From: a virus | Taxonomy: Duplodnaviria; Heunggongvirae; Uroviricota; Caudoviricetes | DNA: 4,748 bases | IMG/VR virus record: IMGVR_UViG_2675903396_000016 | Reading direction: 5' to 3' (one strand) | In this document: piece by piece, positions 934-1,032 of the stretch | Layout: each line of letters starts with the position of its first letter | How positions within the stretch are numbered: the stretch's first letter is position 1 | The notes under the pieces: generated by a model | What the model saw: only the letters and a program-made list of their open reading frames with translations | Database searches by the model: none | Told to the model about the DNA's origin: nothing | Position numbers and translations under genes: made by a program

Positions 934-973
934 TTGATTTTTCCCGAATCTGTGGTAAATTTGCCCTAACGAT
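934..973 (+). promoter_or_regulatory. PR'-like late promoter with -10-like sigma70 pause element (qut region)
   Basis: -35 TTGATT (934-939), 16-nt spacer, TGn plus -10 TAAATT (953-961), then AACGAT at 968-973. The stretch TGGTAAATTTGCCCTAACGATGGG (953-976) closely matches lambda PR' as I recall it (GGGTAAATTTGACTCAACGATGGG), including the pause-inducing -10-like repeat in the initial transcribed region. Predicted start near 968. Confidence 0.6.
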
Positions 974-1009
974 GGGCGTTTTATGCCTGACGTTAGAAGA
1001 TTTTTTACA

Positions 1010-1032
1010 CCCGTCGCCAGGCGGGTTTTTTT
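1010..1032 (+). terminator. Rho-independent terminator, tR'-like, about 45-65 nt downstream of the PR' start
   Basis: GC-rich hairpin CCCGUC/GGCGGG (1010-1015 pairing 1020-1025, one G-U pair) with a 4-nt loop, followed by a 7-T run (1026-1032). The GGG-T7-AT tail resembles the lambda tR' 3' end. Confidence 0.55.

Follow-up and report, generated by a model that had tools for sequence, protein, structure and literature searches.

A predicted compact PR'-tR' late-gene control cassette behind a long Qlambda-family gene in an Sp6-type prophage of Escherichia coli

Background

The late-gene switch of lambdoid phages, built from the promoter PR', the antiterminator Q and the first terminator tR', is textbook material, and its mechanism is drawn from the lambda and P22 literature (PMC9388147, PMC5001585). 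In lambda, the Q-binding element (QBE) sits between the -35 and -10 elements (PMC9388147) and termination occurs at +193/194 (PMC4914094), giving a leader of 194 nt (6S RNA). A compact form is annotated in P22 (GenBank AF527608), where the late RNA is marked as beginning at the initial A of AACGAT, the promoter, qut and tR' are marked as well, tR' spans +31 to +59 and the leader measures about 60 nt. In Stx1 and Stx2a phages (Sp15 and Sp5, 933W type), the PR'-tR' leader arises from a constitutive PR' by early termination in lysogens and yields the small RNA (sRNA) StxS (PMC7547250). Here, these systems are compared with positions 934-1032 of a 4,748-nt stretch of viral DNA (IMG/VR record IMGVR_UViG_2675903396_000016, the whole of which is called the window below), an interval that follows the 3' end of a Q gene.

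The window corresponds to the late-control region of the lambdoid prophage Sp6 of E. coli O157:H7 Sakai (99.8% identity), which is CP-933N in strain EDL933. Judging from homology and conservation, it is highly probable that 934-1032 is the late-gene control cassette (PR', QBE, sigma-dependent pause element and tR') of a prophage nearly identical to Sp6. The kind of element and its compact form are already known and the textbook mechanism stays unchanged; what is new is modest, namely a delineation of the cis elements in a little-studied, long-arm branch of Qlambda proteins, a candidate QBE unlike that of lambda, and a leader of 55-70 nt as the norm of the family.

Materials and methods

Related cassettes were collected by a genome scan downstream of long-Q genes, in which 46 loci were fetched and 45 unique cassettes (with their leaders) were retained from Escherichia, Klebsiella, Enterobacter, Kluyvera, Pantoea and other genera. 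Information content and pairwise identity were calculated for 39 homologues, and these two sets are the ones counted below as cassettes and homologues, respectively. The window was aligned to lambda PR' and to the P22 annotation (AF527608), and +1 was set at A968 by analogy with both phages. A lambda Q scan of viral contigs returned 80 copies, all 99-100% identical and with no diversity, and GenBank phages were used instead for the short-Q relatives. For Sp5, the published StxS coordinates were transferred between genome versions to the current Sakai record. The elements of the cassette, the Q gene and the late genes all lie on the plus strand of the window.

Results and discussion

Promoter, spacer and pause element

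The sequence-only reading of the window had likened its -10 hexamer TAAATT and the AACGAT downstream of it to lambda PR' and the pause element of that promoter, and alignment agrees, as both share the -10, a 6-nt gap, AACGAT at +1 to +6 and then GGG. The sequences are GGTAAATTTGACTCAACGATGGG in lambda and GGTAAATTTGCCCTAACGATGGG in the window, with the same spacing, and the core GGTAAATTTG-N4-AACGATGGG is common to lambda, the window and P22 at identical spacing. The likeness to lambda extends to the family of the antiterminator (PF03589), the position of its gene immediately upstream and of lysis genes downstream, a possible TTG-type -35-like element just upstream of the start, and a 5' leader stem formed by AACGA and UCGUU.

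The -35 hexamer TTGATT (934-939) begins 5 nt after the stop codon of Q (926-928) and is found in register at -34 to -29 in the homologues, with TTTACT in its place in relatives from other genera. It is followed by a 16-nt spacer, TTTCCCGAATCTGTGG (940-955), and by an extended -10 made of TG (953-954), one further base and TAAATT (956-961), the hexamer of both lambda and P22 PR'; T-15, G-14 and the -10 hexamer are conserved among the homologues. At 961-966 lies the -35-like TTGCCC, with TTGACT at the same place in lambda (4 of 6 positions match), of which only the C at -3 is well conserved among the homologues (1.7 bits). From the role given to such an element in the structure of the Qlambda loading complex (PMC9388147), TTGCCC is a possible landing site for a repositioned sigma region 4. 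The predicted start A968 (position 1,554,209 of Sakai NC_002695.2) opens the sigma70-dependent pause element AACGAT (968-973), which together with GGG (974-976) equals lambda +1 to +9. By comparison with published work (PMC5001585), a pause is predicted near +16/+17 (983-984), and both the G/C-rich stretch at +7 to +11 and the step from T17 to G18 agree with the pattern of an elemental pause.

Two other calls in this interval were discarded. The terminator scan listed a site at 962-978 that straddles the predicted start and so cannot form in the PR' transcript. An open frame of 22 codons (972-1040, plus strand; MGVLCLTLEDFLHPSPGGFFYD), whose ATG lies inside AACGATGGG and which runs through the terminator, has no Shine-Dalgarno sequence, is not conserved (lambda has ATG GGT TAA) and is probably spurious.

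Comparison across related cassettes

All 45 cassettes stack without gaps on the AACGAT-like element from -34 to +9, although their flanking sequences are only 38-53% identical. Conserved in this alignment are the -35 (-34 to -29), the block TTTCCCGAAtCTGTG (-28 to -14), the TG, the -10, the C at -3 and AACGATGG (+1 to +8). Among the homologues, AACGAT is the most conserved block, and the mean pairwise identity drops from 0.83 at +1 to +9 to 0.38 at +10 to +32.

Apart from the -10 and the pause element, the spacer is the most conserved block, reaching 2.0 bits at -28 to -24. It also varies with the sub-lineage of Q, reading TTTTTCAAAAAATATGG in K-12 Qin and SfV and AAGTGGCGATATTTG in loci L048-L053. 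As the block TTTCCCGAAtCTGTG is placed as the QBE of lambda is, and is replaced in sub-lineages with divergent Q proteins, it is the natural candidate for the QBE of the window, although it is unrelated in sequence to the lambda spacer (TATTGAATAAAATTGGG), which is 17 nt long in contrast to the 16 nt with TG of the window.

Terminator-like hairpins with stems ending between +52 and +70 (median +55) are present in 33 of the 45 leaders, where dinucleotide shuffles predict 4.6, and it is the position that is kept, as the hairpin sequences differ between lineages. In E. coli alleles, about one third of the last 30 nt of Q differ while the interval from PR' to tR' is almost unchanged, and in the allelic cassettes the hairpin is retained despite changed bases in both stem and loop. 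By this comparison, a leader of 55-70 nt is the norm of the family and the 194 nt of lambda are the outlier; lambda and P22 diverge directly after their shared 5' stem, at about +23, and lambda therefore looks like an expanded form. The very short leader that had been proposed for the window in the absence of Q thus stands, with a predicted length of about 65 nt, but it is not peculiar to this locus, being found also in P22, SfV, K-12 Qin and most long-Q prophages.

P22 is equally compact, has the same 5' stem and carries a terminator of the GCCC..GGGGCTTTT type, as most long-Q cassettes do. It differs from the window in its short Q of 207 aa, which is of lambda type (about 97% identical to lambda Q), in its lambda-type spacer and in the greater strength of its terminator. 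Closer in the antiterminator are quuQ (ydfT) of the K-12 prophage Qin and the Q gene of SfV (753 bp), which code for long Qlambda-family proteins (250 aa); YdfT has PF03589 and a DnaJ-like zinc motif. Both cassettes show AACGATGGG after a TAAAAT or TAAGAT -10, the 5' stem, and a CCCGC..GCGGG hairpin with a T-tract ending at about +63 to +66 (about +63 in the quuQ/ydfT cassette, about +65 for the annotated SfV terminator). In K-12 Qin (locus L135, 6376-6460, minus strand), TAAAAT, TTTTTC, AACGATGGG, the 5' stem and the hairpin follow each other 3' of ydfT/quuQ. Their spacer TTTTTCAAAAAATATGG differs from TTTCCCGAATCTGTGG of the window, which implies a different Q specificity. To our knowledge, neither the Qin nor the SfV cassette has been dissected experimentally.

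Taken with the P22 annotation, the Qlambda-family gene upstream, the in-register conservation in 45 cassettes and the lysis genes downstream bear out the proposal, made from the sequence alone, of a lambda-like late switch.

Proposed mechanism

For the start site, the pause, Q binding, the termination efficiency and read-through at this locus we infer the following course from lambda and P22. The sigma70 holoenzyme would start constitutively at A968, sigma region 2 would re-bind the non-template AACGAT (+1 to +6), and scrunching would continue until the polymerase pauses at about +16/+17. Without Q, it would resume and mostly terminate at the hairpin and U7 tract (+42 to +65). The RNA set free, about 65 nt in length, would carry a stem-loop at its 5' end, then the A/U-rich linker of 14 nt, then the hairpin of the terminator. 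When present, the 273-aa Q would bind the spacer block between -35 and -10, engage the paused complex and travel with the polymerase, and a spacer that changes with the Q sub-lineage is as expected of a Q-specific binding site. The modified polymerase would then ignore tR' and later terminators and reach the esterase, lysis and morphogenesis genes, as well as stx2 in some relatives.

The cassette is common: roughly one in four complete E. coli genomes carries it, K-12-type Qin relatives included. In the Stx2a phage Stx2_EH1910, stx2 is preceded by a cassette identical to that of the window, and in strain STEC276 by an allelic one; in strains with this arrangement it would gate the expression of toxin and lysis genes, which lends it some medical relevance. 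The small constitutive RNA that the cassette predicts in lysogens could be sought in existing datasets.

Leader RNA and first terminator

The predicted leader begins with a stem-loop (968-994, +1 to +27), in which AACG/CGUU encloses GGGCGU/AUGCCU, continues with the 14-nt linker AGAAGAUUUUUUAC (995-1008, +28 to +41), which is unpaired in both the minimum free energy (MFE) and the centroid structure, and ends with tR' (1009-1032), composed of stems at 1009-1015 and 1020-1026, the loop GCCA (1016-1019) and a T-run at 1026-1032 (T7). The terminator scan reported the latter with 7 pairs (5 of them G-C), a loop of 4 and the tail TTTTTTTATGA. Its hairpin has a folding energy of -12.0 kcal/mol (z = -3.2 relative to shuffled sequences), and the 67-nt leader as a whole has an MFE of -21.3 kcal/mol (z = -2.8). 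With +1 at A968, the stem occupies +42 to +59 and the last U of the tract falls at +65, i.e., a leader RNA of about 65 nt with its 3' end at about +65 to +67 is predicted. The sequence-only reading had put the first terminator within roughly 45-65 nt of the start, an accurate estimate, and the hairpin at 1010-1032, right to within 1 nt.

In the outer 5' helix, 89.7% of cells are paired over 33 sequences, and seven cells changed on both sides, a count that none of 500 shuffles reached. The RNA of the pause element itself, AACGA (+1 to +5), pairs with UCGUU at about +19 to +27, so that the stem begins exactly at the 5' end of the transcript. The same stem is seen in lambda (locus L003, 788-812), P22 (locus L136, 1402-1424) and 30 other cassettes, and variants of the pause element come with matching changes on the opposite strand (AAUGA/UCAUU, AACA/UGUU). 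This stem might stabilise the late transcript or influence escape from the pause; we know of no described function for a 5' stem of the late leader.

A mosaic joint was noticed just before tR'. From 1005 to about 1140, the window is 83-93% identical to Stx2a/Stx2d phages and to phiP27, after which (beyond about 1150) it diverges again from its relatives, and these then carry a 65-aa open reading frame resembling a helix-turn-helix protein, a DNA methylase, tRNAs and stx2. The shared stretch with tR' occurs in Stx phages with a Q of the Q21 family, which is unrelated to Qlambda, and the Q-specific module therefore appears to end just before tR', which would be part of an exchangeable late-region module. 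One Stx2a phage of this kind was examined (Stx2_EH2201, locus L002, 2501-2635); its Q is a 126-aa protein of the Q21 family (PF06530) and its promoter region is unrelated.

The only Rfam match to this interval at E <= 1, a weak one to suhB/mmgR across 956-1041, scored 20.5 bits (gathering score 41, E 0.68) and was set aside as chance.

Points against the proposed switch and alternative explanations

Several points weigh against the proposed switch at this locus. PR' matches the promoter consensus at 8 of 12 positions and was not listed by the generic sigma-70 scan, because 8/12 lies under its threshold of 9; the promoter call is thus based on homology and conservation and not on a consensus score. 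No transcript data on the PR' site came up in searches for ECs1524 and CP-933N, and the start, the pause and termination are given here as predictions. Sp6-type prophages may be defective, and the switch might be idle in this host. The hairpin of the window (-12.0 kcal/mol) is the weakest of the three tR' compared, with -19.1 kcal/mol for P22 and -26.9 kcal/mol for the long terminator of lambda as opposed to the 7-bp hairpin found here. Finally, in Sp5 the 258-nt StxS-L is made in lysogens despite an early hairpin of similar energy, and a first terminator of such strength can therefore be leaky.

The Sp5 hairpin, found within locus L139 (746-1003), is canonical, carries a U7 tract (AACCCGCCGATGCGCGGGTTTTTTT) and folds at -12.6 kcal/mol. 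Counted from the mapped PR' start it occupies +24 to +49, well ahead of the StxS 3' end mapped at +258. We found no discussion of it in the StxS paper (PMC7547250). The arrangement suggests tandem terminators in Sp5, the first of them leaky, and a product of 49 nt might have been missed earlier.

The alternative that survives best accepts the cassette but takes the hairpin at 1009-1032 for only a partial first stop, from which a sizeable share of the polymerase not modified by Q would read on to later terminators, e.g., the stronger one at 1824-1850, with the 65-nt RNA as one of several products and the barrier distributed over the region. It draws on the low folding energy relative to lambda and P22, on that downstream terminator, and on the read-through without Q at the equivalent Sp5 hairpin, the last of which depends on our own coordinate transfer between genome versions. 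However, the hairpin is canonical in its stem, its 4-nt loop and its U7 tract, the first terminator keeps its place in 33 of 45 cassettes, which argues for its use, and the P22 terminator at the same distance is annotated as a Q-controlled tR'. We regard a merely partial stop as possible, though distinctly the less probable outcome.

It was also considered whether the constitutive leader of about 65 nt doubles as a trans-acting, Hfq-binding sRNA of lysogens in the manner of StxS. Its layout would suit such a role, since a stem-loop at the 5' end, an unpaired AGAAGA-UUUUUU linker that adjoins the terminator hairpin and a U7 tail are how Hfq-binding sRNAs are built, and the corresponding module can be traced at sequence level (UUUUUU at +34 to +39, hairpin at +42 to +59, U7). 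There is a precedent in StxS itself, which arises by termination of PR' transcripts and regulates rpoS and stx1B (PMC7547250). The cassettes further resemble each other in their position between Q and stx or late genes and in a short hairpin with U7 closely after the start, but the StxS phages have a Q of the Q21 family (PF06530) instead of Qlambda, the mapped terminated RNA is 258 nt long and is processed to 74 nt (PMC7547250), and homology of the window leader to StxS was not found, as a stretch of 12 nt in the terminator stem and T-tract was all that matched the Sp5 PR'-tR' interval. E. coli alleles with diverged Q 3' ends have almost the same leader, and 1416 of the 5426 complete E. coli genomes contain near-full-length copies; the constancy among alleles may, however, simply reflect recent recombination. 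The linker is present in E. coli alleles but almost absent from the homologous cassettes of other genera, so it is no conserved feature of the family, its pairing with translation-start regions in the window was no better than that of shuffled linkers, and prophage sRNA surveys searched by text mention no RNA at the PR' position. A regulatory role in trans is thus unlikely on present evidence. If it did exist, the conserved 5'-terminal stem and the A/U-rich linker would serve RNA stability and target pairing beyond the switch.

Somewhat less likely still is that the cassette is an inactive relic, with intact cis elements but a switch that is never used in this prophage. Many O157 prophages are defective, the genes between tR' and the esterase gene are decayed (they include TerB fragments with an internal stop), and the window has a further deletion of 72 bp there. 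Set against such decay, Q has kept an intact frame, and its product equals the representative sequence of a protein cluster that has 4648 members. Across window 860-1140, which surrounds PR', all 281 bases agree (100% identity) with a record submitted as a complete Stx2a-converting phage, and the Sakai Sp6 annotation gives the downstream lysis and morphogenesis genes as intact.

A chance resemblance to lambda PR', with neither promoter nor pause element, could be argued from the subthreshold promoter score but is very unlikely, as TAAATT-N6-AACGAT occurs once in the window against an expectation of 0.01 per window (one mismatch allowed), directly after a Qlambda-family gene, with in-register conservation across genera and an annotated P22 late RNA start at the same base.

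The Q antiterminator

The Q gene (107-928) has an intact frame of 273 aa, matches PF03589 (E 4.7e-50), the family defined for Qlambda (PMC9388147), and corresponds to ECs_1524 in Sakai Sp6 (99.8% DNA identity). BLASTP against lambda Q gave 32% identity over the full length with gaps in the arm, and the structure matches were PDB 7UBM (7ubm_Q, E 9e-41), 4MO1 and 7UBJ. In comparison to lambda Q, the protein of the window is longer by about 66 aa, an insertion with three further CxxC pairs, all located in the region of the DNA-contacting zinc-ribbon arm of Qlambda. Residues of about 114-218 hold four CxxC pairs and a sub-threshold match to DnaJ_CXXCXGXG, whereas lambda Q has a single zinc ribbon. 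From these motifs, the DNA-contacting arm of the window Q is probably an enlarged module that would hold two zinc sites. AlphaFold2 modelled the helical body of this long Q with confidence, but the insertion (111-182) has a predicted local distance difference test score (pLDDT) < 50 and is unreliable in the model.

Long Q proteins of 260-277 aa are widespread in Enterobacterales according to the protein search. In the phage collection, the short Q of 207 aa was seen only among lambda/P22-type proteins (>= 95% identical to lambda Q), and the more distant matches, among those listed, were mostly of about 240-273 codons.

Prophage context

The order of genes in the window is the 3' end of rusA, Q, the PR' interval, TerB-like fragments, an STnc100 element with a terminator, the esterase gene, DUF1378, DUF826 and holin. 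The late region that the switch would govern (1937-4748) comprises, by Pfam matches, a NanS-p-like sialate O-acetylesterase (1937-3874), DUF1378 (4022-4204), DUF826 (4242-4511) and the start of holin S (PF04971, from 4587 onward); further downstream, the Sakai Sp6 annotation lists endolysin, terminase and head/tail genes, and lysis and morphogenesis genes thus lie 3' of the cassette on the same strand. The 72-bp deletion, located between window positions 1403 and 1406 inside a decayed TerB-like gene, is the sole large difference from Sakai Sp6, in which the missing bases are present. The best complete-genome matches cover about 70 bp more than the window, and none of the complete genomes of the collection matched the window without this gap of about 70 bp.

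The next strong intrinsic terminator (1824-1850; 8 pairs, 7 of them G-C, a T8 tail and -15.4 kcal/mol) is a second barrier to polymerase not modified by Q. It stands at the 3' end of a full-length Rfam match to STnc100 (1630-1796, plus strand; 101.6 bits, E 4e-22), which a 2026 preprint groups with the prophage sRNAs PasD1 and PasD2, adjoining PF03589 Q genes and upstream of a sialate esterase gene. In CP-933N of EDL933, the 154-nt sRNA EvrS/Esr023 has been mapped to the interval that separates the regulator gene z1789 (probably Q) from the esterase gene z1793, and it is therefore probably located in the 1630-1850 region of the window. Its exact ends could not be placed, since its coordinates were published for an older EDL933 record and would lie within Q on CP008957.

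Between the esterase gene and DUF1378 (3875-4021), where Rfam gave no match at E <= 1, hairpins are present on both strands, e.g., GCCGCCGG...CCGGCGGC at about 3887-3928 and a minus-strand site at 3999-3979, and published work describes convergent prophage sRNAs at the esterase-DUF1378 position (the anti-sRNAs AsxR/AgvB; PasA).

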